In this document: piece after piece, positions 4,844 to 20,310 of the stretch
Layout: each line of letters begins with the position of its first letter
How positions within the stretch are numbered: position 1 is the first letter of the stretch
Virus record (IMG/VR): IMGVR_UViG_3300044691_000347
Location: 1-64,000 of that record
Length of the DNA stretch: 64,000 nucleotides
Strand: one strand, 5' to 3'
Source of the DNA: a virus
Position numbers and translations under genes: made by a program
The notes under the pieces: generated by a model
What the model saw: only the letters and a program-made list of their open reading frames with translations
Database searches by the model: none
Told to the model about the DNA's origin: nothing

Positions 4844-6067
4844 TTACAGGAACGCGAGGTCAGACCAGCCGAGCGGGGAATGCTCACCCACGAGGTAGGT
4901 CAAGATGCCGGAGCGGGAGTAGCGACCGGAGATATCGCGCAGCCATTTCGAGCCGCCGTCCAGACTTGGGGCTTGGAACACCGAGCAACTGCCCATATCC
5001 CATGCCGCGAAGTGGTGCCGATGAGCTGTTTGCCAGATCCTGGCGCGATGCGCCTTCTCGTCTCCGCGCGCCTGACCGTTTAGCCACTTCTCAAACGACG
5101 AGGCATCGCCGTTCCCGGGCACCTTATGCCCATGATTGAAAGCGAGCGGGATACCTGCGGCAGCGGTGTACACGTTCATTTCGTCGTGCGGGATCGTCCA
5201 CTTTACGTGGTCGAAGGCGGCGTGACCGGTGAGAGTACGCCGTAGTGTTTCAGCCAAGAAGCCGCCGACATTGTCAGAATCGGAGGTCTTGTTGTCCCGA
5301 CCAGACTGTCTAGATAACTGTCCATGATTACATAGCACTGAGACAAACTGAGCCTTGGAGAACTGGGGAAAGAGTTGCTTGGCATACAGCTGCCACATGT
5401 CGAGGGCGAAGTTCATCTGACCGCGCAAGTTGAGTTCAACCGTAAAAAGCTGGCTCTGGTAGCTTCCATCGCAACCCTCGATCGGATCACCGTTGTTGAC
5501 AAGCACAAGTTCCGCTACGTCGTACGTAGACGACATCCGGTTCAGCCAATGCTGAACGTTCTCTAAACCGTCCGTAAGGCGCTTCTGGGTGGCAGCAACG
5601 CCGCCGCCCTCACTCTTGCCGCCCTGGATGTCCGCCAGGTTGACTACAGCGGCTACGGGTGGTCGGTTTGGCCGTACGGGCCGATCCTGTCCAGCGGTGA
5701 GATTGAAGTGCTTCGGCATCTTCCACGCCCGAAGTTCGGCGCGGCGCTGCTCTACTTCGTCATCCGGGATGCGCTGTTTCGGTTTGCGCTTGAATCGGGC
5801 CGAATATGAGTATAGTTGCACCGTGTCGCGGTCGCCGCTATTGGTACGTTTAGACTGCTGCCACGTGGAGCAACGGACGGTGTCGTCCACAACCTCGAAC
5901 TCGTCAGCGTTCAGTTTGAACAGCTCGAAGACATGCGCCCAATCATCGTTAATGGGCGCATCGACGACTACATTGTTGACGGTGGCGCCATCGCTGGTTA
6001 CGTCGATGGATCCCCTGTTTTGCGGGTCGCGCGGTTCGACGTCGGCGATTGCGTCTGCGAGGCTCAC
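4844..6067 (-). CDS. Calcineurin-like metallophosphoesterase / exonuclease
   Basis: Motifs DIQ, GDPIEG, NHG, HGH, HRHH; GTG start at 6067 overlaps the upstream stop (GTGA). Confidence 0.75.
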   Translation of the reverse strand: MSLADAIADVEPRDPQNRGSIDVTSDGATVNNVVVDAPINDDWAHVFELFKLNADEFEVVDDTVRCSTWQQSKRTNSGDRDTVQLYSYSARFKRKPKQRIPDDEVEQRRAELRAWKMPKHFNLTAGQDRPVRPNRPPVAAVVNLADIQGGKSEGGGVAATQKRLTDGLENVQHWLNRMSSTYDVAELVLVNNGDPIEGCDGSYQSQLFTVELNLRGQMNFALDMWQLYAKQLFPQFSKAQFVSVLCNHGQLSRQSGRDNKTSDSDNVGGFLAETLRRTLTGHAAFDHVKWTIPHDEMNVYTAAAGIPLAFNHGHKVPGNGDASSFEKWLNGQARGDEKAHRARIWQTAHRHHFAAWDMGSCSVFQAPSLDGGSKWLRDISGRYSRSGILTYLVGEHSPLGWSDLAFL

Positions 6068-6318
6068 TCGACGATCCCCAATCCGAGGAAGCAAGAACAC
6101 CTGGCGCGACAGTGCCGCCGGAACTGGGTTTCGCCTGCCTCGCAACCGTTTTTGATCGCCAACTTGTGCAAGTCGGCGACTGCGCCAGCGCGCTCCAAAA
6201 AGTCTTGAAAAGCGTCCCGATCCCGGTCCGCAAGTCCAGCAACCCAAATCCCAGTCTTACACGGGTTCGGCTTCCGGGACTGCTGCGCATGGTCAAACAC
6301 GTCATCCGCGAATGACAT
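6064..6318 (-). CDS. Small Cys/His-containing protein coupled to the metallophosphoesterase
   Basis: MSFADD...CKTG...FRRHCRARCSC; GGAGGCGG RBS; translationally coupled. Confidence 0.7.
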   Translation of the reverse strand: MSFADDVFDHAQQSRKPNPCKTGIWVAGLADRDRDAFQDFLERAGAVADLHKLAIKNGCEAGETQFRRHCRARCSCFLGLGIVE

Positions 6319-6388
6319 TCCGCCTCCTTGATCCACCTTCTAGATCAATCATATTGACGGAAGCAAACCCGACAGTCGGGCCGCGTTA

Positions 6389-7684
6389 TCATGCAGCGAC
6401 ATTCGACAGCTTCACATGCCGGCGCCACTTACGTTCAGTTGACAGACACCCGTACCGGATAGCGTCAAGACCGTGATCATTCAGTTTGATCGGCTGATCG
6501 CGGCCTTCGGTCGTGGCCTTCGTGTCCCACATGTATCCGGGAATCTCTTTCAGGAGGCCCGCGCACCTGTCAGAAACCTTGAGCTTGTCAGAGCTGAATA
6601 GGGCGGACATCGTTCGAATCCCGTACAGAACTTCTTTGTTGGCGAGATAGGTTGTGAGCCCATCCTGTTTCAACTGGACCCGATAGTCTGTGGCGGATGA
6701 ATCCACGATGACCGGGCATGTGATGCGCGGCGGGTTGTCATGATCGTCACTCGGATGATGAGGTTTCGCCAGCCAATCCCGAAGTCCCTGCGACAGCTGC
6801 ACATTCGACCACCGGGCTTCACGATTGCTCGGCGCATACCGCCACTCGTCCAACGCATACAGGACGTTGTCGACACCAAGGCCGATCATCACTGCATGCG
6901 TAGGGTTGGTGGTTCCGTGGTCGACGCCAACACCGATATTCCATTGCATCTCAGGCAGTTCCGACCAGGGCACGACATGCCGGGCCGGATCGAAACAGTC
7001 GTAGACCGATCCCTCTGCTGCAACCCACTGGCCTAGAATGTTCCGTAGATAGAACAGGCCTTGATTCTCAGCTTTGATCGATGCTACGTATAAGGGATCG
7101 AGTGACGGGTTGTCGTCGAGGGTGAAATCCCACGCCTTCAAACGCATGTCGCGTTCATGCTGACGGTCGATGAAACCAGTCTTCAAATAGTGTTGCGGGT
7201 TGTCCGGGTTCGTCGTCGCCAAACAGCGGGCACCAGGAACAGAAAGGCGACCGAGGAGCTGATTCCAGAACGGTTGGGGAAGCAATGTTGCCTCATCGAC
7301 CAACGCCAAGCAGGCTGTCAGACCGCGGAGCTTCCCTTCCGACAGGACGTTGGCAGCACCGATGAGATGCACCATGCGGCCAAGGATTACAGCCGTGTTC
7401 GATCCGCGCGTGTGATGCACTTCAGACGCCCATGGACCGAAAACTTCCGGGTCCTGCATCGGCTCGATAATGTTCCGTTCGATCGTCTGCAATGTTCGCC
7501 CGCAGATCAGGATGAGTCCGGTGCTGGGAGCTTCCATCACAGCGCCGTAGAACGAGAGGATGGATGCGATTGTCTTGCCGGATCGGATCGCGCCGGACCA
7601 GATCGATACGCGTTGGTGTCGGGCTTCGACGATTGATCCGATCTGTTTGCGGGACAGCGGCAATGCGTCAAGCAGTTCGGTCAC
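6389..7684 (-). CDS. terL: Terminase large subunit (PBSX-like)
   Basis: Walker A GAIRSGKT, Walker B LVDE, TTNP motif, nuclease GVDHG and DHGLDAIRY. Confidence 0.95.
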   Translation of the reverse strand: MTELLDALPLSRKQIGSIVEARHQRVSIWSGAIRSGKTIASILSFYGAVMEAPSTGLILICGRTLQTIERNIIEPMQDPEVFGPWASEVHHTRGSNTAVILGRMVHLIGAANVLSEGKLRGLTACLALVDEATLLPQPFWNQLLGRLSVPGARCLATTNPDNPQHYLKTGFIDRQHERDMRLKAWDFTLDDNPSLDPLYVASIKAENQGLFYLRNILGQWVAAEGSVYDCFDPARHVVPWSELPEMQWNIGVGVDHGTTNPTHAVMIGLGVDNVLYALDEWRYAPSNREARWSNVQLSQGLRDWLAKPHHPSDDHDNPPRITCPVIVDSSATDYRVQLKQDGLTTYLANKEVLYGIRTMSALFSSDKLKVSDRCAGLLKEIPGYMWDTKATTEGRDQPIKLNDHGLDAIRYGCLSTERKWRRHVKLSNVAA

Positions 7685-11885: not shown

Positions 11886-12022
11886 GCGGTGACGAGTGGC
11901 TGCCGTAGCTACACCACACGCCGTGAAGGCTGTCGCGCCGAAGCGGGAGAACCTTCTACGGTTACCGCAAGCAAAGCCCCAATGTTGATATCAGAGTTGG
12001 GGTTACTCTGGGCCGTCACCGC
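11886..12022 (-). ncRNA. Structured RNA element with a possible pseudoknot
   Basis: GCGGTGACG/CGTCACCGC closing stem; CAGAGT/ACTCTG hairpin whose CCCCA loop complements TGGGG; CGC-TTCG-GCG tetraloop. Confidence 0.55.
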
Positions 12023-12085
12023 CAGGTGATTCCGTGAAATACGGAAGGACAGTCAAACCCGCTGCCAGAGGCGACGGACCATATG

Positions 12086-12157
12086 AGCTTCCACCAGGAC
12101 TCGGACCCGGCACTCTTGTTTACTAGACAAGTGCTTTACCAGATAAGCTATGGAAGC
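12086..12157 (-). tRNA. tRNA-Thr(AGT)
   Basis: Full cloverleaf: acceptor GCTTCCA/TGGAAGC, D arm GCTT/AAGC, anticodon arm CTTGT-CTAGTAA-ACAAG, T arm CCGGG-TCCGAGT-CCTGG; CCA not encoded. Confidence 0.85.
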
Positions 12158-12190
12158 GACTACCCATCGATCCCGGAGGATGACGAGCCG

Positions 12191-12439
12191 TTAAACGCGC
12201 GGCGGCCAGTTCCAGCAACCGGGGGTCGGCACTTCAGCGAACGGAACGAGCTGGTTGAAGAACATGCCAGTCGGGTTGAGCACGCACAAACCGACATGCA
12301 CTTTAGAGGGGTTGGCGAGGTCCGGCGAGTCATCAGGGTACGTGCAAGTAATGATGGCAGCTCGTGGCTCGGGCAGATATTCGCCGCCCGGAGTACCGTA
12401 CGACTGGTAATGGACGATGCGACCAACTGTAGGATTCAC
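12191..12439 (-). CDS. Conserved small phage protein (PTVGRIVHY...WPPRV type)
   Basis: GTG start 2 nt after the tRNA-Ser discriminator; recognisable family motif at both ends. Confidence 0.7.
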   Translation of the reverse strand: MNPTVGRIVHYQSYGTPGGEYLPEPRAAIITCTYPDDSPDLANPSKVHVGLCVLNPTGMFFNQLVPFAEVPTPGCWNWPPRV

Positions 12440-12440
12440 G

Positions 12441-12524
12441 CGGAAGTTTGATGAGTCGAACACCCGGGTTTTACCCCGCCTCTGGCTTTCAAGGCCAGCT
12501 GCCGACCACTCGGCGGAAACTTCC
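12441..12524 (-). tRNA. tRNA-Ser(TGA) with an 8/4 acceptor/T-stem fold
   Basis: Acceptor GGAAGTTT/AAACTTCC, G73, anticodon arm CTGGC-CTTGAAA-GCCAG, long variable arm, T arm GGTG-TTCGACT-CATC. Confidence 0.8.
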
Positions 12525-12528
12525 AGAC

Positions 12529-12583
12529 GCACCTAGCGGCCGGGACTGGAACCCGGGAAACCATTGCCACACTCGCTAGATGC
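12529..12583 (-). ncRNA. Mini tRNA-like element with no anticodon arm
   Basis: GCATCTAGCG/CGCTAGGTGC stem, D-loop-like AATGGT, T arm CCGGG-TTCCAGT-CCCGG. Confidence 0.6.
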
Positions 12584-12601
12584 TGGTGCACCGTGGCTAC
12601 G

Positions 12602-12675
12602 TTGCGATGGCAGGATTTGAACCTGCGACCTAGAGCTTATGAGGCTCCCGAGCTACCGAACTGCTCCACATCGCA
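12602..12675 (-). tRNA. tRNA-Met(CAT) with an initiator-derived body
   Basis: TGCGATG/CATCGCA, GAGC-AGTTCGGTA-GCTC, GGAGC-CTCATAA-GCTCT, GCAGG-TTCAAAT-CCTGC. Confidence 0.9.
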
Positions 12676-13130
12676 CTGAGGCCCTTGATAACGGAGGTCT
12701 GCAACTCCGGTCCACCGTCTTTCGGTCCCAGCGCATAGCGTGGACTGTAGGGCACGGCAGTCATGCGTTTTAACACCTGAGCCTTGCGGCTACCGCCTTA
12801 CCGTGTATTTCGGCCCCACATGCGCGGCAGGGAATGTTAGCCCCTGCTGCCCCGACGACTCTCCGTCGCCGGGCCGCGCAAGTTTAAAAGGTGGGCGGCT
12901 TACTAGGCCAATCGACCGGAGGACGAACACTTAGTCATGTAAGTTGATCCGGTGCCACAACACTTTGTCCGCTAAGACTGGAAAGCCTCGGGCCGCTAAG
13001 CCTTCGGTGGATAGTGGTTCCTCAGCACTCGCCGTTGGTTCCACTTCATTCCCGTTGTGCACATTTCAGCCCGCGTTCCCGGTAGGCTGAACACTCTGTC
13101 ACCACCAGCGCGAGCCGCTAAACCCGCGCT
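12676..13130 (-). ncRNA. Large ornate non-coding RNA candidate (ROOL/GOLLD-like context) containing a hatchet-like domain
   Basis: No credible ORF; more than 10 helices, GCAA and GAAA loops, several long-range pairings; flanked by tRNAs. Confidence 0.65.
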
Positions 13131-13133
13131 TTG

Positions 13134-13204
13134 CTCCCCATCCGCGAGTCGAACGCGGACGTAGCCTTTTATATCGGGCAGCTCTACCGTTGAGCTAATG
13201 AGGA
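13134..13204 (-). tRNA. Pseudo-tRNA with a degenerate anticodon arm
   Basis: Acceptor TCCTCAT/ATGGGGA, D arm GCTC/GAGC, T arm CCGCG-TTCGACT-CGCGG; anticodon arm reduced to GCC/GGC around CGATATAAAA. Confidence 0.7.
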
Positions 13205-13292
13205 AACCGTGAGAGTCAATACCCCCAACCCCCACAATGCTAGGGCATGTTTCCCCTAAATCCGGCTTTGTCGATAACGATTACATAACGTC

Positions 13293-13931
13293 CTATGCTA
13301 CTTCAGCCGCAATCGCCGCATAGCCCGCGATATCTACGCACGAATCCCGTTTGTGTCCGGCCGCTTCCCGCGCGATCTTCGCGAGAATCATCATCAACGC
13401 CACATCCCGCGGTTGCAGCAAATCACCAGACTGCATGATCGGATACAGGTAGTCGTTCCAATACTCCGCGATCCTCTTCAGGTTGTCCCGCGGATTCCCG
13501 TACTGGTCCTCTCGATCCCCGCACACAAGGCTTTCAGCTTCACGCAGGACTTGCGCGCGGACGGGAATGTCTTCTTCTATATCCGGTTCTTCGTCGTCGC
13601 ACCGCGACCAGACACCGCCGTTCGGGTCCGGCAGCTGTCTATACGGTTCACGAAGGGCGAGCGTGAACCCGGTTGCTTGACAGAACTCTTCGAGGGTGGT
13701 GATGCCGTTGAGCTGGTCGCCGTACGTGACGGCACTTTCCAACTCGAATGGGCCATCCTCTGGTCCGATGAACACCTTCGCCTGACCGTGCCGATACTTG
13801 AAGTGCCGGTATTGCCCGGTCGCTGTCCACGCATCCCACGTCGACGGGATCCCGTAACAGGTGTGGATGGCCTTCACGATCACCGTGTCACTCGGCACCG
13901 CCCGAAACTCCTCTTCTGTCAACGCACTCAC
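13293..13931 (-). CDS. Two-domain protein with a C-terminal DUF6378-like (all-alpha NTP-pyrophosphatase-related) domain
   Basis: LREAESLVCGDREDQYG...RIAEYW...KIAR...DSCVDIAGYA; GTGA overlap. Confidence 0.7.
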   Translation of the reverse strand: MSALTEEEFRAVPSDTVIVKAIHTCYGIPSTWDAWTATGQYRHFKYRHGQAKVFIGPEDGPFELESAVTYGDQLNGITTLEEFCQATGFTLALREPYRQLPDPNGGVWSRCDDEEPDIEEDIPVRAQVLREAESLVCGDREDQYGNPRDNLKRIAEYWNDYLYPIMQSGDLLQPRDVALMMILAKIAREAAGHKRDSCVDIAGYAAIAAEVA

Positions 13932-14224
13932 GCTGCCACCTCTTTCTTTGTCGGTCGTCTCGTCCCCTGCATCTCCCGGACACGCCCTACACCGGTCGGC
14001 CCATACCAGAGGGCTTTCGAAACCTCGCCGGCGATCACCTCGGGTGCGGGATGCCCCCAATGCCATAGGCCGTCGATGTGCGGGCATGGATAGGCTTGCA
14101 GCCGTTCACCCGGAAACCGGCGTCGCGCTGCGGTGCGTGCGTGTTTGCGGCTCGGGTAGGCGTGCTTCCGGCACTGCTCACACCTGCCGACCGCGCGACC
14201 ATCAACCGGTCTGTTCCTGTTCAC
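13928..14224 (-). CDS. Small zinc-binding protein
   Basis: CEQCRKHAY...AYPCP...WHWGH; coupled overlaps at both ends. Confidence 0.6.
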   Translation of the reverse strand: MNRNRPVDGRAVGRCEQCRKHAYPSRKHARTAARRRFPGERLQAYPCPHIDGLWHWGHPAPEVIAGEVSKALWYGPTGVGRVREMQGTRRPTKKEVAA

Positions 14225-14868
14225 GCCGCCTCCCCGAAGTCGAGCGGGAAACCTGGATGGTTGTCAGCCGTGTCGATCCAACTCATCAGCTTCGGCAAAT
14301 TCTGATCCGGCCCAAATGTCAGGTAAGTCCCGTCGACCGAGTTGCAGCCAATGGCCTCCGCGTACCGAAAGCGGCGCAACGAGTTCACTCTTCCCATGTG
14401 TACCCACTTCCCGCGGCGCTTCGCCTCACCCACGAGTGCGCGCGCACTCGAACTCAGTTTCCATTCCGTCGATCCGCCAATGAACAAGACGTCGAACTCG
14501 CTCCACGGGATCGCCCATGGCGCAGGCAGCGCTTCCAAGCCGTCCTGGGCGACAAACGCAGCCGGGTAGCCCAACTCTCGGACTTTCGGCAGCCAAGGGA
14601 GCGAGCGCCGTAGAGTCGCGACGGCGTCACCGACAACATCGGGCGCGGTAGCGAATAGGCATGTTCCCGCATCAGTTGCGTTGGCTGTCAACCATGTCAG
14701 CCATGCCGCGTCTCCTGGATACCCCTTGCCGAAGCAGCCGTTGTCAGCACACCAACTGACACCAGAGGGCCGCTTGTTGCCTTGCGCTGGGGTATCGATG
14801 AATCCGAGCATGCCGCTCACCATGGCTGCCACGGTCGCCGCACCGCACGGGTTGGCCATGTATTGCAT
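14221..14868 (-). CDS. TGT/DpdA-like (7-deazaguanine transglycosylase-fold) protein
   Basis: ADNGCF, APDVVGD, VAQDG, LFIGG, VHMG and SVDG motifs in TGT barrel order; next to the QueF-like and VUT genes. Confidence 0.65.
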   Translation of the reverse strand: MQYMANPCGAATVAAMVSGMLGFIDTPAQGNKRPSGVSWCADNGCFGKGYPGDAAWLTWLTANATDAGTCLFATAPDVVGDAVATLRRSLPWLPKVRELGYPAAFVAQDGLEALPAPWAIPWSEFDVLFIGGSTEWKLSSSARALVGEAKRRGKWVHMGRVNSLRRFRYAEAIGCNSVDGTYLTFGPDQNLPKLMSWIDTADNHPGFPLDFGEAA

Positions 14869-14872
14869 CGCG

Positions 14873-15196
14873 TCACGCTCGGCCTCGCTTGACCCGTACA
14901 CTCATGCTGGCGGTCGTCCATGTGCTCGACACGCCAACGACTTCGGGGCCGTCAAGCGAGGCCAGTTCGTCGAACACGCGGCTTGTCAGAGCTTCGTGCG
15001 ATATCGGCGTTTCAGCGAAGCCATTGAAATATTCTGCCAGTGCATGCAATTCGAATGTACAATCCGAGACCAAGAACACGACCGTGACCTCACCCTCGTC
15101 CACTTCGTCCGCAAATGGGCACAAGTGTTGGATGGGTGCGGTGATGGTGACAGTCTCCGGCCCGACTTCAGGCGAAAGATTTCTGACGATCGACAT
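14873..15196 (-). CDS. QueF-like T-fold protein
   Basis: LCPxxxxxD catalytic Cys/Asp spacing, ELHALAEY at the QueF-motif position, ISHE. Confidence 0.7.
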   Translation of the reverse strand: MSIVRNLSPEVGPETVTITAPIQHLCPFADEVDEGEVTVVFLVSDCTFELHALAEYFNGFAETPISHEALTSRVFDELASLDGPEVVGVSSTWTTASMSVRVKRGRA

Positions 15197-15722: not shown

Positions 15723-16342
15723 GCAGCCTCACTCCAGCTGTGCACGCCGAGAACGCCAGCGATATCCGGGGGCGTCCAACCGTTCGGCTTCATCACCTTG
15801 CCGTCAGGGCGTCGAATAGCGATGCCGCCCACCAACTTCGCAAGGTTCGAGCGTTGCACCTCATCCCACACTGCCTGCAAAGGAAGCCCGAGCATGTAGC
15901 CGACGCCAGCGACGCCGTACATTGCGTCATGGATGGCGTTGTCGATGCGGATGAGGTTCCGGTCGTGTGCAGCGTCGAGGATGCAAGCGTGTGCGGACTC
16001 CAAATCCTCACGCACCGACCGGATGTCCTCGCCGGTGAGCGCGGTGAAACCGATCGTGATCCCGTGGATCGGCGCCTTCAGGAAGTCGGTAACGAATCGG
16101 CGCGCGACACCCAGACGGAGAGCGAGACCAGCGAGAACGTAGAGACTGTCGGCCACAGCGTCGGCAGTCTCTACGATGTCCCGGACCTCCAGCGCGGAGT
16201 CCAACTCGCTCAACTCTTCCGCAACCAGGCTCAATGCAAGCTGAAGTTCATCATCGGGCACCCAACCGGGCACAAGCCGCATGCGCACATCGCAGGCGCG
16301 GCTGAAGGTCTCAACGTCCAGCCACAGATTAGAAGTCATCAT
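15719..16342 (-). CDS. MazG-like nucleoside triphosphate pyrophosphohydrolase (duplicated helical module)
   Basis: EELSEL...DAVADSLYV; WDEVQRSNLAK...RPDGKVMKP.GW.PPDI. Confidence 0.8.
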   Translation of the reverse strand: MMTSNLWLDVETFSRACDVRMRLVPGWVPDDELQLALSLVAEELSELDSALEVRDIVETADAVADSLYVLAGLALRLGVARRFVTDFLKAPIHGITIGFTALTGEDIRSVREDLESAHACILDAAHDRNLIRIDNAIHDAMYGVAGVGYMLGLPLQAVWDEVQRSNLAKLVGGIAIRRPDGKVMKPNGWTPPDIAGVLGVHSWSEAA

Positions 16343-17282
16343 GGTCGGGAATCCCCAATCTCATCAGCGGCACGCCAAGACGAGCCCACATTCTTGCCAC
16401 ACTCAGTCGATCATCGAAAACCCCGAGAATCCGGTAGCGGCACCGGATCTGCTGGTCAAAGATGCCGTACTTGACCGTGTAATCCGGTCGCTTATCCCCC
16501 GTGACCCGCATGTGGATCTCATCGAACGGGATGCCGTTGGCACGCAACCATGCCGCGGTCACGTCCTTGCAGGCGTCATCCCTGCCGCTCAAAATTACGA
16601 TCGCCGAATCGGCGGCCAACTTTCGCACCACTTCCACCGTGTGAGCGATCGGGATATCCTCATGCACGCGCGTGTAGTCGTAGATACCGCGAGTCGGGGA
16701 CTTCGTTGCGAGCGTCCCATCAACGTCGACCAGCCATGCCGGCGGAAGGGCTTCATCGGGCACATACGGATCTGGGTAGAAAAACAGATCTGGTGACGGT
16801 TCGACCTTCGGCCAGTTCTTGCGCGGGAACCGTCTGGCGAGCGCCCGAATCGCGTCCTCTCCGACCGTCCTGCCACCAGCTTCACCGCGGGCTTTGTCGC
16901 GGGCTACGCAAACGTCTACGGGAGTGTCGAGGTAGATCGATTCTACGTCGGCGCCGTTCAAGGCCGCTATGTTTGCCCAGCCGCGTGTCCACTGTGCGCG
17001 CAGGTTCATTGCGTCGACGAAGACGTCGAATCCGGCGTCGATGAGCGTTTTCGCCTGTGCCCGTTCGGCTTTAGTGATCACTTGCTCTTGATCGTTCGGG
17101 AGCCGTCCGTGTGCACCGAACAGGGTTACCCGTAAATCGTCACGGGACACGCGAGCAAGCAACGGGTTGGTGGCACGCATCTGCTCGAATAGGCTGGTTT
17201 TTCCTGCTCCAGGCCAACCGATCGGCACATACACTTTCGGGCGACGTGGCGCGTCCACGACTGCCAGTTTCTCGATGCTCAT
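16329..17282 (-). CDS. pnk: Polynucleotide 5'-kinase/3'-phosphatase (T4 PseT-like)
   Basis: P-loop GWPGAGKT, SRDDLR; HAD motifs DVDGT, SGR, FDDR. Confidence 0.9.
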   Translation of the reverse strand: MSIEKLAVVDAPRRPKVYVPIGWPGAGKTSLFEQMRATNPLLARVSRDDLRVTLFGAHGRLPNDQEQVITKAERAQAKTLIDAGFDVFVDAMNLRAQWTRGWANIAALNGADVESIYLDTPVDVCVARDKARGEAGGRTVGEDAIRALARRFPRKNWPKVEPSPDLFFYPDPYVPDEALPPAWLVDVDGTLATKSPTRGIYDYTRVHEDIPIAHTVEVVRKLAADSAIVILSGRDDACKDVTAAWLRANGIPFDEIHMRVTGDKRPDYTVKYGIFDQQIRCRYRILGVFDDRLSVARMWARLGVPLMRLGIPDHDDF

Positions 17283-17896
17283 GCCGATACCACCTCATCG
17301 CGGTTGAAAACGAACTTCTGATAGACGCTCCGGTTGGTGGCACGCATCCGAACGGAGATCCTGTCTCCATGGCGCATTAGGTCCCCGCGGAACGCCCCGT
17401 AGAGCGGCAACGCTGCCGCCACACGGGCCGCTACAGCCACGGCGAACGCTTCGTCGACCTCTCCCCCCAGTTTCATTTCCAAACGTTCTGGGGTGGCTGT
17501 GAGGCGCGCATACTTGTTGCTGCCCCCATAGATGAGCTGCACTTCGGCTGGTGCGCCACTTCGGTCCGGCATCCCATCCGGTTCACGTTCATACAGTTCG
17601 GCTCGGTTGCCTGGATAGGCCGCCCAGCTCAGGTTTTCGCGGCGATCGTTCGACAAGTCTCCATCGGCGTGGATTACATCGACATCACTCGGCATCCAGC
17701 CCAGGAACGCCACCGCTACAAGCCGATCAACGCGAACAACTGAGCGGACACCGTTCTTCACCAAGACGACGTAATTTCGCCCTGCTGCGTGCCCTGGACG
17801 TTGAGGTACCGGCAAACCAGCGCTGCGCACGCTGCCGTGGTCGGATACCTCGCATCCGGGCTCACAACCGGAGATTCGACGCCACTCTTCGGTCAC
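17279..17896 (-). CDS. NUMOD4/HNH-type endonuclease-like protein, possibly degenerate, with an extra C-terminal domain
   Basis: EEWRRI...EVSDHGSVRS; VDRLVAVAF...HADGD..N...NLSW. Confidence 0.65.
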   Translation of the reverse strand: MTEEWRRISGCEPGCEVSDHGSVRSAGLPVPQRPGHAAGRNYVVLVKNGVRSVVRVDRLVAVAFLGWMPSDVDVIHADGDLSNDRRENLSWAAYPGNRAELYEREPDGMPDRSGAPAEVQLIYGGSNKYARLTATPERLEMKLGGEVDEAFAVAVAARVAAALPLYGAFRGDLMRHGDRISVRMRATNRSVYQKFVFNRDEVVSA

Positions 17897-19158
17897 GCAG
17901 CCTCCCCCAGCGATTCGAGGTCGACTTTACCCTTGTCCAACTGTTTGGTCTCGAAAGCGAAGAACGCTGGAGCCTTCGCCTTCGAGAAGTGCGGGGCGAT
18001 GCCCTCCACGCGTACAACAACGCCTTCGTCCACGGTCTTTCCAGGTTCGAGCGGGATGGCGTGCAGATAGCCTTCGTCGCGGTAGCGTTTGTCGAGCCAG
18101 TCTGCGACGGCGAAGTCGGAATGCAGCCCAGTCCACAGTTCCGGGACGTGCTTCAGTCCGCGGTCGCGGCAGAACTCTTTGACGGCTTCCCAAGACAGGT
18201 CGACCGCTATTCCTTGACCGTTCACGACAGCAACGCGGTAGATGTACAGTTCGGCGTCGCCCCTGGGGATGCAATACGTGTAACCGGTCTGTAATGCTGC
18301 ACCGTCCTGCGACCAGCCGACGAGTTCACCGTACACGATGTAGTTTTCGGGAAGCATGCCGTCGAGCCGTTTGCCGTAGTGGGTCCACACGTCGGATTCG
18401 TAGTGATGCTGTTGGCCCTTGTTGTTGGCGTCCTTCACTACTCGACGACTCGCATACACGTAGTCGTGTTCGGTGGTTGCCACCTTGACACCGAACTTGC
18501 GTGCGATTCGGTCGCGGATCGGCAGTGCTCGCGCAACGGTGGTGTGCCCCACGCGGATTGAGGTTCCGTGCAACTTCTGGGTGCAGAGGATGCGAGCATC
18601 CGCGGGGATCTGCGCGGAGACCCGGAAATAGTTGTCGGTCGAAAAATGTTCCGGCATGAACTTTTTGTCGACGCGCGTGAACTTGGCCTTGTTCTTCTCT
18701 GTCAGCGAAGCGCCGTTGCCCTTGACCATGACCTCATATTTGGAGCAAATCGGGTGCCCGTTCAATGTGTCGAATGTGTCGCCGACCTTCAAGTCGTCAA
18801 CGTCGACGCCCGTGAAGGCAAGCGATGCCAACGGCATGAACAGGGCATCTGACCGGTGTCCACGCAGCTTTATGGCACGCACACGTCGGTTGTCACCCAA
18901 GTAGCCCTTGGCGTCGGGTGTGGCATTCAGGTGGGCATGCGCGTGGAGGTCGTTGACCCGCGCGTACTCGTCGCTGAGCTGTGTCTCCGCAGTGAAAACC
19001 ACGCCGACGGTTCCTTGTGCCGTGTCTTTGCCCACGATCGCCTGAAAACCAAGCGCCTGTACACCAACGATGTTGTCGCAGCCATGTAGCTCGTTCGGCG
19101 CGGGGAGCGCTACGACGACGGCGCTGTAATTCGGGTTTGCTGGAGTAGTCAACTTCAT
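17893..19158 (-). CDS. ATP-dependent RNA ligase with an N-terminal OB/tRNA-binding-like domain (DRB0094-like)
   Basis: KLHGT adenylation motif, YGELVG, VPEL, EGVVVR, KAK; N-terminal VRAIKLRG..S. Confidence 0.85.
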   Translation of the reverse strand: MKLTTPANPNYSAVVVALPAPNELHGCDNIVGVQALGFQAIVGKDTAQGTVGVVFTAETQLSDEYARVNDLHAHAHLNATPDAKGYLGDNRRVRAIKLRGHRSDALFMPLASLAFTGVDVDDLKVGDTFDTLNGHPICSKYEVMVKGNGASLTEKNKAKFTRVDKKFMPEHFSTDNYFRVSAQIPADARILCTQKLHGTSIRVGHTTVARALPIRDRIARKFGVKVATTEHDYVYASRRVVKDANNKGQQHHYESDVWTHYGKRLDGMLPENYIVYGELVGWSQDGAALQTGYTYCIPRGDAELYIYRVAVVNGQGIAVDLSWEAVKEFCRDRGLKHVPELWTGLHSDFAVADWLDKRYRDEGYLHAIPLEPGKTVDEGVVVRVEGIAPHFSKAKAPAFFAFETKQLDKGKVDLESLGEAA

Positions 19159-19162
19159 TTAC

Positions 19163-19183
19163 CTACGATAGCGTATATCGCAT
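19163..19183. promoter_or_regulatory. Palindromic operator candidate, copy 1
   Basis: CTACGATA-GCGTA-TATCGCAT, 5 nt upstream of the RNA ligase start. Confidence 0.55.
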
Positions 19184-19191
19184 GCGATCGT

Positions 19192-19956
19192 CTACATCGG
19201 ATTCAGACTGTTCGTCTCGACGATCACCGTGTTCTCTGCGATCGGTGAGGAGTCATCGTTGAGGATGTTGACGGTCGTCGAGTAGTCGGCGCCGTTCAGG
19301 GTGGTAGTGAGCCGCCCGTGGTAGTGGCCGGCGTACAGGTGGCGCGGTTTCACGTCATCGACGACTGACCGCAGGAGTTCCCGATGGCATTGCGCGGCAT
19401 AAATTTCGGCCTCCGGGTAGCCGTGCGGGTTGCCTTCGATCCACGGGATTCGGGCGCCTGCGGGCACATCGTGACAGATCATGACGTCGGCGGGTCCGTC
19501 GTCACAGGCCTGTTGTGCTTGCTGCCAGCTGATCGTCTCGTCAGGCCACCACTCGACGCCAGGTGTCCGCCAGGGCCGGTCAACGCTATGCGCGCCACCC
19601 AGCGCGAGGAATCGGATGTCGTTCCATGTCCATCGGTAGGTGCGCGGCAAGTAGAAGATGTTCGGCCGCATCGCGATCGGGGTGATGCCGTGTTCGTCGA
19701 CGAGGGCGTTCAGCCGGGGATGATCCTCATGGTTCCCATCAACGAACCCGAGCGTGAGTCCTGCGTCCTCTAGGGCGTATTGCACGTGCCGCATGAACCG
19801 GTCTGCGAACGTGTAGCCGAAGTCGCCGACATGCAGGATAACTTGGGCACCATTGGCTTTCGCGTATTCGATGGCCCGCTTGGCGAAATGTTGATTTCCA
19901 TGCCAATCACCAGACAACGTGATCGGTGTTGGCGCGAGATCTTCCCAGGTGCTCAT
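19192..19956 (-). CDS. Metallophosphoesterase
   Basis: GDWHG, GDFG, GNHE, CHD, GHYH. Confidence 0.9.
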   Translation of the reverse strand: MSTWEDLAPTPITLSGDWHGNQHFAKRAIEYAKANGAQVILHVGDFGYTFADRFMRHVQYALEDAGLTLGFVDGNHEDHPRLNALVDEHGITPIAMRPNIFYLPRTYRWTWNDIRFLALGGAHSVDRPWRTPGVEWWPDETISWQQAQQACDDGPADVMICHDVPAGARIPWIEGNPHGYPEAEIYAAQCHRELLRSVVDDVKPRHLYAGHYHGRLTTTLNGADYSTTVNILNDDSSPIAENTVIVETNSLNPM

Positions 19957-20310
19957 CGTTCGATCCGTCCGTGTTTGCGCACTTGTTTCCAACGCCGCCA
20001 CACTCGGTCTTGATGGCAGGTGCTTTGATACGGGTTGCAGTCGTCGCATTCGCGTAGGTCGCGGAACTCCCATAGTGCGATGACGAGGACATGGAAACCT
20101 ACCGGAATAGCGAGCGTCTTGCGGTAGTACTCGTCGCCACCGAACCAAGGCCACACGTACGGGCGCAGATGCCCTCGTTTCGGAATCCCCATGTTCGTCA
20201 GCCACATTCGGCCACGGATGGATCGGCGAAGGCCCCGAAGTTCGGCAACTTCTCGTATCAACATGCTGCCCACGTCCTGATCATGTCGTCGGTTGCGTAG
20301 CGATGGTGCT

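Follow-up and report, generated by a model that had tools for sequence, protein, structure and literature searches.

What fills a long gap in a phage tRNA array when no protein is encoded there and the gap is bounded by tRNA-like genes on both sides? The window examined here, by which we mean the whole 64,000-nt stretch of DNA, comes from a complete actinophage genome of 91 kb, and it presents one such gap: the interval 12676-13132 on the minus strand is exactly bracketed by an ARAGORN tRNA call at 13133-13204 and by tRNA-Met at 12601-12675. An earlier note on this DNA had proposed that the gap, bracketed by tRNAs and without a credible ORF, holds one ornate non-coding RNA of about 450 nt. The bracketing fits exactly, no reading frame is kept open across the relatives described below, and neither ARAGORN nor Rfam gave a tmRNA in the window. 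A structured non-coding RNA within this tRNA cluster is borne out by comparative evidence, namely covariation; its proposed size is not, as the conserved unit measures 200-250 nt, about half of that length. Only the 5' part of the 457 flagged bases (12886-13132, minus strand, 247 nt) is conserved, and it is almost certainly the gene of a real structured RNA. The layout of the locus is as follows.

13133..13204, minus strand: tRNA-like 'handle', 0 nt upstream of the core; called tRNA-Tyr(ata) by ARAGORN
12886..13132, minus strand: conserved core RNA, 247 nt in the window phage; matched over its full length by covariance model R1 (173.6 bits)
12676..12885, minus strand: variable 3' cassette, 210 nt, outside the conserved R1 family
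12601..12675, minus strand: tRNA-Met(CAU), found by ARAGORN and by the Rfam tRNA model (68 bits)

The idea of a conserved 457-nt unit fails at the 3' cassette. Where the window has these 210 nt, the closest relative (locus L162) has a 78-nt spacer followed by tRNA-Trp and tRNA-Tyr. Matches elsewhere are weak and patchy (L165 at E 0.009; L173 and L082 at E 0.2-0.35), the middle stretch has no matches among the loci, and the window's 3' half shows no match to the second spacer module conserved in Nocardia prophages. Two hairpins were delineated in the cassette.

About 12821-12881, minus strand: Y-shaped GC-rich hairpin
12692-12709, minus strand: small recurrent hairpin module CGGAG-UUGCAGAC-CUCCG, then UUAUCAA

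The second of these had been listed in the earlier note, and its CGGAG/CUCCG stem shows one compensatory pair among four sequences. Other small recurrent hairpin modules also occur in tRNA arrays.

Members and distribution of the R1 family

Judged by its match to R1, the covariance model that we built for the new family, the core RNA at 12886-13132 is a member of a previously uncatalogued family of structured RNAs. The match extends across model positions 1-221 at 173.6 bits, and the window copy also has the UGACAGAGUG...AAUGUG junction, the closing helix and the pseudoknot between the P3 loop and the P7 interior loop. Synteny, exact-pattern scans and the covariance model together yielded at least 31 distinct members. 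The first homologue (L082) came from metagenome contigs by way of a neighbouring DUF6378 gene, and the UGACAGAGUG junction, used as a search pattern, retrieved new members. Carriers include uncultured actinophage contigs, Nocardia prophages (10 of the 151 sampled species genomes) and the Mycobacterium phages Bromden, DyoEdafos, Chaser, Baudelaire and Aegeus, in whose GenBank records the corresponding gap is without annotation in five of five cases. The RNA is present in a single copy per genome. Its core spans 200-250 nt in relatives and 298 nt with a nested tRNA; in the latter arrangement, seen in L173, a tRNA-Met takes the place of the third UAGC-capped hairpin and the copy still scores 190.6 bits over the full length.

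Several other routes gave no relatives. The DUF6378 neighbour route returned nothing in viral contigs, a route through DpdA-like neighbours led to 78 viral loci, none with R1-family RNA and few with tRNAs, and one through RNA ligase led to two loci, again with no R1-family RNA, while blastn of the window region against cultured phages matched solely via tRNA-Met. Loci found by pattern only (L172, L175, L176, L184, L185, L209, L211-L213, L217, L218 and L220) had no model match and were attributed to chance, and short genome matches of about 20 bits were deemed spurious. Clustering of neighbouring genes recovered only the synteny shared among related Nocardia-type phages and found no protein common to these and to cluster L phages. 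Most tRNA arrays, those of related cluster L phages among them, are without R1-family RNA, and literature searches found no description of it.

A covarying, pseudoknotted fold

The evidence for the structure of the core is comparative rather than thermodynamic. Stability alone is unremarkable, with folding z-scores of -0.87 (whole interval), -1.1 (core) and -2.05 (3' half). Across 26 sequences, 95.3% of cells pair, compared with 35-43% in slid controls; 46 of the 56 pairs show double-sided changes, and none of 500 shuffles reached the observed pairing value. The fitting of A3 and A4 to the model structure biases these two alignments toward it; A2 was not so fitted. In a MAFFT alignment not fitted to any structure, compensatory changes appear in 31 of 56 pairs.

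These changes also bear on whether the conserved element acts as RNA at all. A small protein gene or a DNA-level site (attP or an operator) could be suspected from the stop-free stretches of 47-92 codons in single members, which arise from GC-rich sequence, and from the one subtype that lies at a prophage end near tRNA-Met. We give this almost no credence: the most open frame varies by member, stops interrupt nearly all frames, indels are not multiples of three, and compensatory changes in 46 of 56 pairs are a signature of RNA structure.

On this comparative evidence, the core RNA folds into a compact, pseudoknotted body. A 5' hairpin stands outside a closing helix, which encloses a four-arm junction, and three hairpins of the core share one cap, the tetraloop UAGC. 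The elements, all on the minus strand, are listed here in 5' to 3' order.

13107..13130: P1 hairpin (AGCGCGGGUU / GGCUCGCGCU; helix 1), tetraloop UAGC at 13117-13120
13102..13106: closing helix, 5' strand GGUGG, pairs with 12890-12894
13092..13101: junction UGACAGAGUG, invariant in the 26 aligned members bar one substitution in L170
13065..13091: P3 hairpin (UUCAGCC ... GGCUGAA; helix 4), the 3' part of its loop entering the pseudoknot
13073..13078: pseudoknot strand GAACGC in the P3 loop, pairs with 12925-12930
13060-13065: further junction stretch AAUGUG, near-invariant together with UGACAGAGUG
12956..13059: central domain, closed by long-range CACAAC/GUUGUG (helix 5)
12991-13002 and 12967-12978: two UAGC-capped hairpins in the central domain (helices 8 and 9)
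12915..12953: P7 (ACCGGA / UCCGGU; helix 10), with a large interior loop that holds the pseudoknot partner
12925..12930: pseudoknot strand GUGUUC in the P7 interior loop, pairs with 13073-13078
12897..12909: P8 hairpin GGC-CUAGUAA-GCC (helix 11), 7-nt loop, adjoining the closing helix
12890..12894: closing helix, 3' strand CCACC, pairs with 13102-13106

Double-sided changes affect ten of ten pairs in P1, four of five in P3, all seven in the long-range helix 5 (where 100% of cells pair), five of six in P7 and five of five in P8, and helices 8 and 9 covary as well, including a swap of U.G to G.U at the loop-closing pair. The closing helix is paired in 99% of cells and covaries as UGUGG/CCACA in L182, GGUAG/CUACC in Baudelaire and GAUGG/UCAUC in L186. 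Of the helices proposed in the earlier note, AGCGCG/CGCGCU, UUCAGCC/GGCUGAA and ACCGGA/UCCGGU, as well as the long-range pairing of CACAAC (13054-59) with GUUGUG (12956-61), are real and covary. Its outer ties fared differently: neither GCUGAGG with CCUCAGU nor CACCU with AGGUG finds support, the conserved, covarying closing helix being GGUGG (13102-13106)/CCACC (12890-12894) instead, and a GCUGGUG/CACCAGC pair enclosing tRNA-Met is both unsupported and in conflict with that helix.

The pseudoknot, absent from that earlier list, comprises 6-9 bp and ties two arms of the junction. It covaries both within and between subtypes, with variants GGACAC/GUGUUC, GAAUCG/CGAUUC, GAACCG/CGGUUC, GGAGCGC/GUGCUUC, GUGGCAG/CUGUCAC, GUGACUG/CAGUCAC and GUAGCCG/CGGCUAC. 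A test based on the longest complement discriminated poorly, because it admitted G.U pairs and compared related sequences, and a positional count was used instead, in which 87% of cells pair, compared with 16-41% when slid.

Two local readings were discarded. A Trp-Trp-stop leader in UGGUGGUGA is contradicted by Baudelaire, which has GGUAGUGA there, the bases pairing in a covarying helix; motifs resembling 5S rRNA or RNase P have no Rfam match, and the order of their elements does not fit.

Comparison with catalogued RNAs

Rfam 15 (4227 families) was searched with the whole window at the gathering score, and with the window copy and two other members at E<=10, the E<=10 scans of the window covering 12000-13400 and 12660-13140. 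Scans of the window and of three members returned tRNAs and chance-level matches only (sR16, COG3860 and terC, at E of about 3). The ROOL, GOLLD, hatchet and raiA models, named in the earlier note as the ones to search with, gave no match at E<=10 on three members. The resemblance to ROOL that had been proposed is not supported, with no match on the window copy or the two other members, and the motif order on which it was based does not correspond to the conserved positions of the R1 family; the alternative offered beside it, a new large RNA class, was the better half of the interpretation, the family being absent from Rfam.

We consider it very improbable that the 457 nt from one tRNA to the other make up a single large ornate RNA with kinship to ROOL or GOLLD. 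The phage tRNA cluster and the tRNA brackets would suit such an RNA, shuffled sequences fold a little less well than the 3' half (z = -2.05), cuts by RNase P and RNase Z and nothing else would free all 457 nt in the window phage, and a tRNA is nested in a hairpin in L173, as in some GOLLD RNAs (PMC6582537). Yet both families are in the library that gave no match at E<=10 on three members, the conserved unit stops at 12886, L162 has tRNAs in place of the 3' half, and the enclosing helices that had been proposed are incompatible with the closing helix that covaries. Moreover, a positive control shows that the GOLLD model can detect its target (144.5 bits in a Mycobacteriaceae genome), and R1 run with filters off found nothing within that GOLLD.

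GOLLD is expressed with the phage. Like the R1 family, GOLLD (RF02032) resides in phage and prophage tRNA clusters, a likeness of context and not of homology, and it also occurs in mycobacterial tRNA islands (PMC6582537). Some GOLLD RNAs carry a nested (pseudo)tRNA (PMC6582537), as the R1 member L173 does, a trait that looks convergent and does not by itself speak for kinship. GOLLD exceeds 400 nt, whereas the R1 core has 200-250 nt and another helix plan. ROOL, an RNA of about 500-600 nt found in Firmicutes and rumen samples, is likewise a structured RNA often near tRNAs in prophages, which is again context and not homology; the R1 family differs in a conserved unit of just 200-250 nt, in the lack of conservation of the 3' 210 nt and in the absence of a covariance-model match. 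Bacterial and mycobacteriophage Y RNAs (YrlA) are phage-encoded structured RNAs with tRNA-like modules in Actinobacteria (PMC4201824). Unlike them, the R1 core lacks a domain resembling a T arm and matches no Rfam family, and the 91-kb genome has no TROVE (Ro60) gene in a search that detected it in control genomes.

The same scans bear on two functional classes. A ribozyme that cleaves itself, or one that acts on tRNAs or other RNAs, might be imagined from the compact pseudoknotted core with its invariant unpaired nucleotides and from the frequency of small ribozymes in phage genomes, and a hatchet-like idea had been attached to 12761-12847. We regard this as improbable: no Rfam ribozyme family matches at E<=10, the hatchet model included, none of the loci has a relative of the hatchet-like stretch, which falls within the 3' half that is not conserved, and the ends of the RNA coincide with those of tRNAs, so self-cleavage would be needless. 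Even less credible is a ligand-binding aptamer acting as a riboswitch-like sensor. Multi-way junctions locked by a loop-loop contact are a common aptamer architecture, but the minimal copies (L163, L168 and Baudelaire) abut the next tRNA and leave no room for an expression platform, there is no consistent downstream gene, and no Rfam riboswitch matches.

tRNA flanks and probable release of the RNA

In T4, rnaC and rnaD (species 1 and 2), stable RNAs of about 120-140 nt, lie in the tRNA region and are released from the phage tRNA operon by the tRNA-processing machinery, and in MALAT1/mascRNA and mitochondrial tRNA punctuation, tRNA or tRNA-like folds act as cutting signals for RNase P and RNase Z and so mark where an adjacent RNA ends. 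The layout of the R1 family recalls both. Its members lie inside or at the edge of tRNA arrays in 29 of 31 cases, and the RNA starts 0-4 nt past a tRNA in 21 of the 26 members tabulated, a further five, added later, all being within 0-2 nt of one; in L162, L201 and Bromden, a homologous handle or an annotated tRNA lies upstream that ARAGORN does not call there. On the other side, the next tRNA is also only 0-6 nt away in L163, L168, Baudelaire, L214, L215, L216 and L219. These flush flanks make excision by RNase P and RNase Z probable. As in T4, a non-tRNA RNA sits flush between phage tRNA genes, a resemblance of layout; rnaC and rnaD are shorter and belong to another phage group.

The upstream element of the window keeps acceptor, D and T arms, and its anticodon loop AUAUAAA lacks U33 and tops a poor stem; the Rfam tRNA model does not match it even at E<=10. 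Most Nocardia-type members follow a homologous handle in which the anticodon arm is variable or decayed, the arms of such upstream elements having loops of 3-6 nt, no U33, or class-II anticodons on bodies of 71-76 nt. Several 'tRNAs' with impossible anticodons beside R1-family RNA are probably not decoders, and in Nocardia-type phages, among them the window phage, the tRNA-like element appears to have lost decoding and to be kept solely as a processing handle. The retained acceptor, D and T arms beside a decaying anticodon arm are what likens it to MALAT1/mascRNA and to mitochondrial punctuation, which are eukaryotic and organellar, and the R1 processing is inferred from gene layout only.

Inside the tRNA array we found no promoter-like sites and, on the strand of the core RNA, no terminator-like sites. 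The core RNA would be transcribed within the tRNA-array precursor and cut out by host tRNA-processing enzymes, with RNase Z or an equivalent 3' activity cutting at the 3' end of the upstream tRNA and RNase P at the 5' end of the next. In the window phage, the 5' end of tRNA-Met would set the 3' end of the primary product, so that cutting by RNase P/Z would first yield all 457 nt, with the 210-nt tail then either kept or trimmed. Many members have 50-370 nt from the core to the next tRNA, and there another activity would therefore make the 3' end, or the RNA would be tailed. Nor is tRNA punctuation obligatory, because the L182/L183 subtype, which lies at the end of a prophage with a host-like tRNA-Met 174 nt away, has no flanking tRNA. 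Release by tRNA-processing enzymes is favoured by us with moderate confidence, and the same moderate confidence applies to the joint claim of a structured RNA gene so released.

Embedding in tRNA arrays, flush with tRNAs, would also be expected of a cis-acting array element without function once released, a spacer that orders processing by RNase P, Z and E or protects the precursor, and other small recurrent hairpin modules in the same arrays fit such a role. We think this unlikely. A near-invariant junction, three identical tetraloops and a covarying pseudoknot exceed the needs of a spacer and persist across very different phages, most tRNA arrays, related cluster L phages included, do without the RNA, and the L182-type copy has no adjacent tRNAs.

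Possible function and significance

Our preferred reading is that the core is a stable, trans-acting RNA of the tRNA arrays of Mycobacteriales phages and prophages (Nocardia, Mycobacterium and uncultured relatives). Through its invariant junction and its three UAGC loops, all alike, it would grip a partner during lytic growth, candidates being a protein or an RNA that works in tRNA metabolism or in translation, or a tRNA-targeting defence factor of the host. In cluster L phages, expression of the rightward tRNA clusters is thought to belong to lytic growth (PMC10865867). We put forward this partner-binding role tentatively, as possible but short of probable. More doubtful is the stronger proposal that the RNA is an effector of the phage tRNA programme and not a passenger, its compact pseudoknotted body using that junction and those loops to bind tRNAs, a tRNA-processing or tRNA-repair enzyme, or a host defence nuclease that targets tRNAs, perhaps as a decoy or inhibitor. 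The window phage encodes both Pnkp and a T4-type RNA ligase; of four near-complete carrier phage genomes tested, all have Pnkp and three have the ligase. This association may reflect shared ancestry only, because both genes are common in tRNA-array phages and carriers alone were compared.

Phage tRNA arrays are usually read as kits of tRNAs only, serving codon usage or anti-defence. Those of actinophages also hold a conserved, knotted RNA of 200-250 nt with a near-invariant junction, which points to selection for something other than decoding. The family thereby joins a short list of enigmatic tRNA-adjacent phage RNAs (GOLLD, ROOL and T4 rnaC/rnaD). Unlike these, it is found in temperate Mycobacterium smegmatis and M. 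chelonae phages that can be cultured, and deletion, pull-down and structure work are routine in Bromden, DyoEdafos, Chaser, Baudelaire and Aegeus. If the effector proposal is true, the RNA would be an RNA-based factor of counter-defence or translation takeover. The degenerate tRNA-like handle, for its part, suggests that tRNA-processing enzymes manufacture a non-tRNA RNA in bacteria; with this dedicated, anticodon-less handle, the family would then provide a bacterial case of the tRNA-punctuated biogenesis of a non-tRNA RNA.

A structured RNA family bordered by tRNAs

The 12676-13132 interval (minus strand), which the earlier note had read as an ornate non-coding RNA of about 450 nt bracketed by tRNAs, exactly fills the space between tRNA-'Tyr'(ata) and tRNA-Met, two of the four tRNAs that ARAGORN calls around it:

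ARAGORN calls around the interval
13133-13204, minus strand: tRNA-'Tyr'(ata)
12601-12675, minus strand: tRNA-Met
12440-12524, minus strand: tRNA-Ser
12085-12157, minus strand: tRNA-Thr

ORFs within it are short and unconserved, in keeping with the earlier reading that none is credible. Its predicted folding energy is unremarkable: the whole interval has z = -0.87, the 5'-terminal 247 nt -1.1 and the 3'-terminal 210 nt -2.05, so single-sequence folding says little here and comparison is needed to decide.

Relatives were not reached by every route: blastn of the region against cultured phages gave matches through tRNA-Met only, and anchoring on two neighbouring genes (DpdA-like and RNA ligase) yielded no RNA relatives. 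The upstream DUF6378 gene as anchor led to a first homologue on metagenome contig L082, laid out as in the window, with a DUF6378 gene, an odd tRNA and then a match to query bases 1-271 (nhmmer E = 3e-9). An exact search with a 21-nt block common to these two copies retrieved seven viral contigs and five Nocardia genomes, and in every true match a tRNA end directly precedes the matching stretch. A covariance model of the family, R1 (221 positions, 56 pairs; E-values rough owing to a short calibration), used together with two looser patterns, added a divergent subtype from a Mycobacteriaceae prophage (L182/L183), the phages Bromden and DyoEdafos, and other contigs. With the Bromden copy as query, blastn found the RNA in five cultured phages, none of whose records carries an annotation beneath the match:

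Cultured carriers
On M. smegmatis: Bromden, DyoEdafos, Chaser
On M. chelonae: Baudelaire, Aegeus

Strong one-copy matches were present in 10 of 151 Nocardia species genomes and in 2 of 151 from the family of Nocardia genome G001, with no new match in 149 others across the class; searches over more than 40 genomes used stricter filters, so divergent copies may be missed in these counts. The family comprises at least 31 distinct members.

Extent of the conserved unit

Of the proposed 450-nt RNA, the first 247 nt (12886-13132, the core RNA) belong to the family, and the remaining 3' half (12676-12885) falls outside the conserved unit. The shortest members (L163, L168 and Baudelaire), at 200-213 nt, take up the whole gap between two tRNAs. 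In L162, the closest relative, two blocks align with the window, 13159 to 12878 and 12602 to 12438; the part between them consists of a 78-nt spacer, tRNA-Trp and tRNA-Tyr, which stand in the place of the window's 3' half and tRNA-Met. Matches to the 3' half are weak and piecemeal, its first 60 nt resembling one Nocardia prophage (E = 0.009) and its last 65-82 nt two other arrays (E = 0.2-0.35), with no match among the loci for its hatchet-like middle. It also holds one copy of a hairpin module, C(G/C)GAG-UUGNAKAC-CUC(C/G)G followed by UAUCAA, which recurs in tRNA-array spacers with one compensatory pair and lies variously before or after tRNA-Met or after tRNA-Pro:

Copies of the hairpin module
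Window 12692-12709, minus strand
L170:6010-6081
L082:3338-3426
L173:3297-3409

We read the 3' half, on this comparison of sequences, as a variable cassette of spacer hairpins outside the conserved RNA, although in the source phage it would initially be attached to the core RNA.

Separately, a second conserved block (GAGCAG, a hairpin, CCAGUCC ... GGUGGGCGACUACAU) occupies the spacer between core RNA and next tRNA in six Nocardia-type arrays (L166, L169, L170, L200, L187 and L201). It may be another small structured RNA, and the window's 3' half does not match it.

Consensus fold and pseudoknot

Nine members were aligned with MAFFT without reference to any structure, and RNAalifold derived from this alignment a 56-pair consensus in which 31 pairs carry compensatory changes. 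When 26 sequences were aligned to the model, standard pairs occupied 95.3% of cells, against 35-43% with partners slid by 1-3 columns; changes on both sides were seen in 46 of the 56 pairs, and none of 500 column shuffles reached any observed measure. Model-fitted alignments favour the R1 structure, and the unfitted MAFFT alignment agrees with it.

Elements of the core RNA (all minus strand)
13107-13130: 5' hairpin P1, with UAGC tetraloop
13102-13106 (GGUGG) with 12890-12894 (CCACC): closing helix, covarying to UGUGG/CCACA, GGUAG/CUACC and GAUGG/UCAUC
Flanking P3: junction UGACAGAGUG plus AAUGUG, invariant but for one substitution in one member
13065-13091: hairpin P3
CACAAC/GUUGUG: closes the central domain, 7 of 7 pairs covarying
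ACCGGA/UCCGGU: helix P7, whose interior loop carries the pseudoknot partner
P8: hairpin with 7-nt loop

The long-range CACAAC/GUUGUG pairing noticed earlier is thus real. The same UAGC tetraloop caps P1 and two hairpins of the central domain, and its closing U.G pair becomes G.U in other members. In L173 (2357-2654) a complete tRNA-Met-like gene replaces the third UAGC hairpin, and R1 still matches end to end (190.6 bits).

A scan for covarying column pairs outside R1 revealed a pseudoknot between the 3' part of the P3 loop and the P7 interior loop, in the window GAACGC (13073-13078) with GUGUUC (12925-12930). This pairing is absent from the list in the earlier note. Its cells pair in 87% of cases against 16-41% when slid (20 main-type rows); a cruder longest-complement test discriminated poorly.

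Pseudoknot variants
Nocardia-type: GGACAC / GUGUUC
Nocardia-type: GAAUCG / CGAUUC or CGGUUC
Nocardia-type: GAACCG / CGGUUC
Nocardia-type: GGAGCGC / GUGCUUC
Baudelaire: GUGGCAG / CUGUCAC
L182: GUGACUG / CAGUCAC
DyoEdafos: GUAGCCG / CGGCUAC
Bromden: GUAGCCG / CGGUUAC

The least-interrupted reading frame differs between members, stops fall in nearly every frame and indels do not come in threes; judged from these sequences, the locus is not coding. The core RNA is almost certainly a real structured RNA gene.

Comparison with known RNA families

Rfam 15 (4227 models, including ROOL, GOLLD, hatchet, raiA, Y RNAs, RNase P, tmRNA and riboswitches) found only tRNAs in the window at gathering score, and nothing meaningful at E<=10 in narrow window slices and two other family members. 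The suggested resemblance to ROOL consequently finds no support in these three members. As a positive control, the GOLLD model recovered a full-length match in a Mycobacteriaceae genome (L207:1501-1953, minus strand; 144.5 bits, just below the Rfam cut-off of 150) with a nested pseudo-tRNA that ARAGORN calls tRNA-SeC(tca), in line with GOLLD genes already described from tRNA islands of mycobacteria (PMC6582537); R1 does not recognise this RNA even with filters off. A hatchet reading is likewise unsupported, given no Rfam match at E<=10 and a hatchet-like middle of the 3' half that lacks relatives, and a Y-RNA reading is removed by the absence of a Ro60 gene, for which the source phage was searched. 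The genomic setting of the core RNA is like that of GOLLD, ROOL and T4 rnaC/rnaD; sequence and structure models place it in no Rfam family. No description of it was found in the literature; a paper on tRNA-dependent lysogeny in cluster K and L phages mentions the Bromden tRNAs and not the gap that holds the core RNA.

The upstream tRNA-like handle

In 21 of 26 tabulated members ARAGORN calls a tRNA that ends 0-4 nt ahead of the core RNA. Of the other five, L162 and L201 have a homologous element (the handle) that it does not call, Bromden has an annotated tRNA-Pro 4 nt upstream, and an adjacent tRNA is absent in L182/L183 only. In five later-added members the tRNA lies at most 2 nt upstream. 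Cluster L mycobacteriophages have an ordinary tRNA-Pro(UGG) or tRNA-Ile(GAU) in this position. Nocardia-type handles, the window's included, have good acceptor, D and T arms and a variable anticodon arm often unable to decode, and the junction that comes after them is the same in all: one base, then CAAAGC. The Rfam tRNA model misses the window's handle (13133-13204) even with the threshold relaxed to E<=10.

Oddities of the handles
Anticodon loops of 3-6 nt (Nocardia-type)
Anticodon loops without U33: AUAUAAA (window), ACAAUAU, CAACGGG, CCGUAAA
UAGC-type pentaloop in the anticodon arm (Nocardia-type)
Leu or Ser anticodons on 71-76-nt bodies without a long variable arm

From this gene layout we infer, as the simplest reading, that the tRNA shape has been kept as a signal telling RNase P and RNase Z where to cut, and would thereby set the 5' end of the core RNA; its 3' end would be set by the 5' end of the next tRNA where the two are flush. 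Release by tRNA-processing enzymes is, on balance, probable. Such punctuation is not obligatory, because L182/L183, 174 nt from a prophage-end tRNA-Met, have no adjacent tRNA.

Another tRNA-like mini-element lies between tRNA-Met and tRNA-Ser (12533-12607, minus strand), with a good T arm (CCGGG-UUCCAGU-CCCGG), an acceptor-like stem, a weak mascRNA-type Rfam match (19.6 bits), an ARAGORN call of 'tRNA-Ala(agc)' at relaxed settings only, and 82% conservation in L162.

The source phage and its gene neighbourhood

The source record (91,377 bp, direct terminal repeats, rated complete), whose first 64 kb make up the window, has phage-like gene content, with portal, terminase and lysis enzyme among the window genes. 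Judging by its neighbouring genes, the virus is an actinophage without a close cultured relative, since their nucleotide-level matches are to Gordonia, Mycobacterium, Rhodococcus and Arthrobacter phages. An RNA-repair set lies 3-7 kb upstream of the tRNA array:

16329-20205, minus strand: whole set, Pnkp, RNA ligase and calcineurin-like phosphoesterase (metallophosphatase)
16329-17282, minus strand: Pnkp (kinase and HAD phosphatase)
17893-19158, minus strand: T4-type RNA ligase (PF09414)

Several other features of the window merit mention. The gene at 14221-14901 (minus strand), without a Pfam match at default threshold, is homologous to an Arthrobacter phage Sonali gene annotated as a DpdA-like tRNA-guanine transglycosylase, a homology suggestive of 7-deazaguanine modification of DNA. 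At 4844-7684 (minus strand), a 431-aa terminase-like ORF covers just positions 275-596 of the 807-position large-terminase profile and is followed by a 467-aa 'exonuclease' ORF; the terminase gene is perhaps split or arranged in an unusual way. An 88-aa ORF of no Pfam family (12160-12426, minus strand) occupies the space between tRNA-Ser and tRNA-Thr; at the DNA level it shares 72-74% identity with gene 1 ('hypothetical protein') of many Gordonia phages. Finally, the motif UAAUCGUUAUC, common to window 13205-13292 (minus strand) and L082:2407-2460, sits in both phages just past the DUF6378 stop and upstream of the handle; it could be a promoter or operator, and a sigma-70 consensus scan of the region found nothing.

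Possible function

Three features, the near-invariant junction, the set of identical UAGC loops and the pseudoknot, point to a specific molecular interaction and away from a spacer. Each of the four near-complete carrier genomes tested encodes Pnkp, and three of the four also encode an RNA ligase; the window phage has both. This co-occurrence is a lead and not evidence because the comparison covers carriers only. Together with the predicted co-transcription with tRNAs, the presence of these enzymes loosely ties the core RNA to tRNA metabolism or to a contest with host tRNA-targeting defences. Our best guess, a tentative one, is that the core RNA might act in trans during lytic growth, as a scaffold or decoy whose target is a protein or an RNA belonging to tRNA or translation metabolism.
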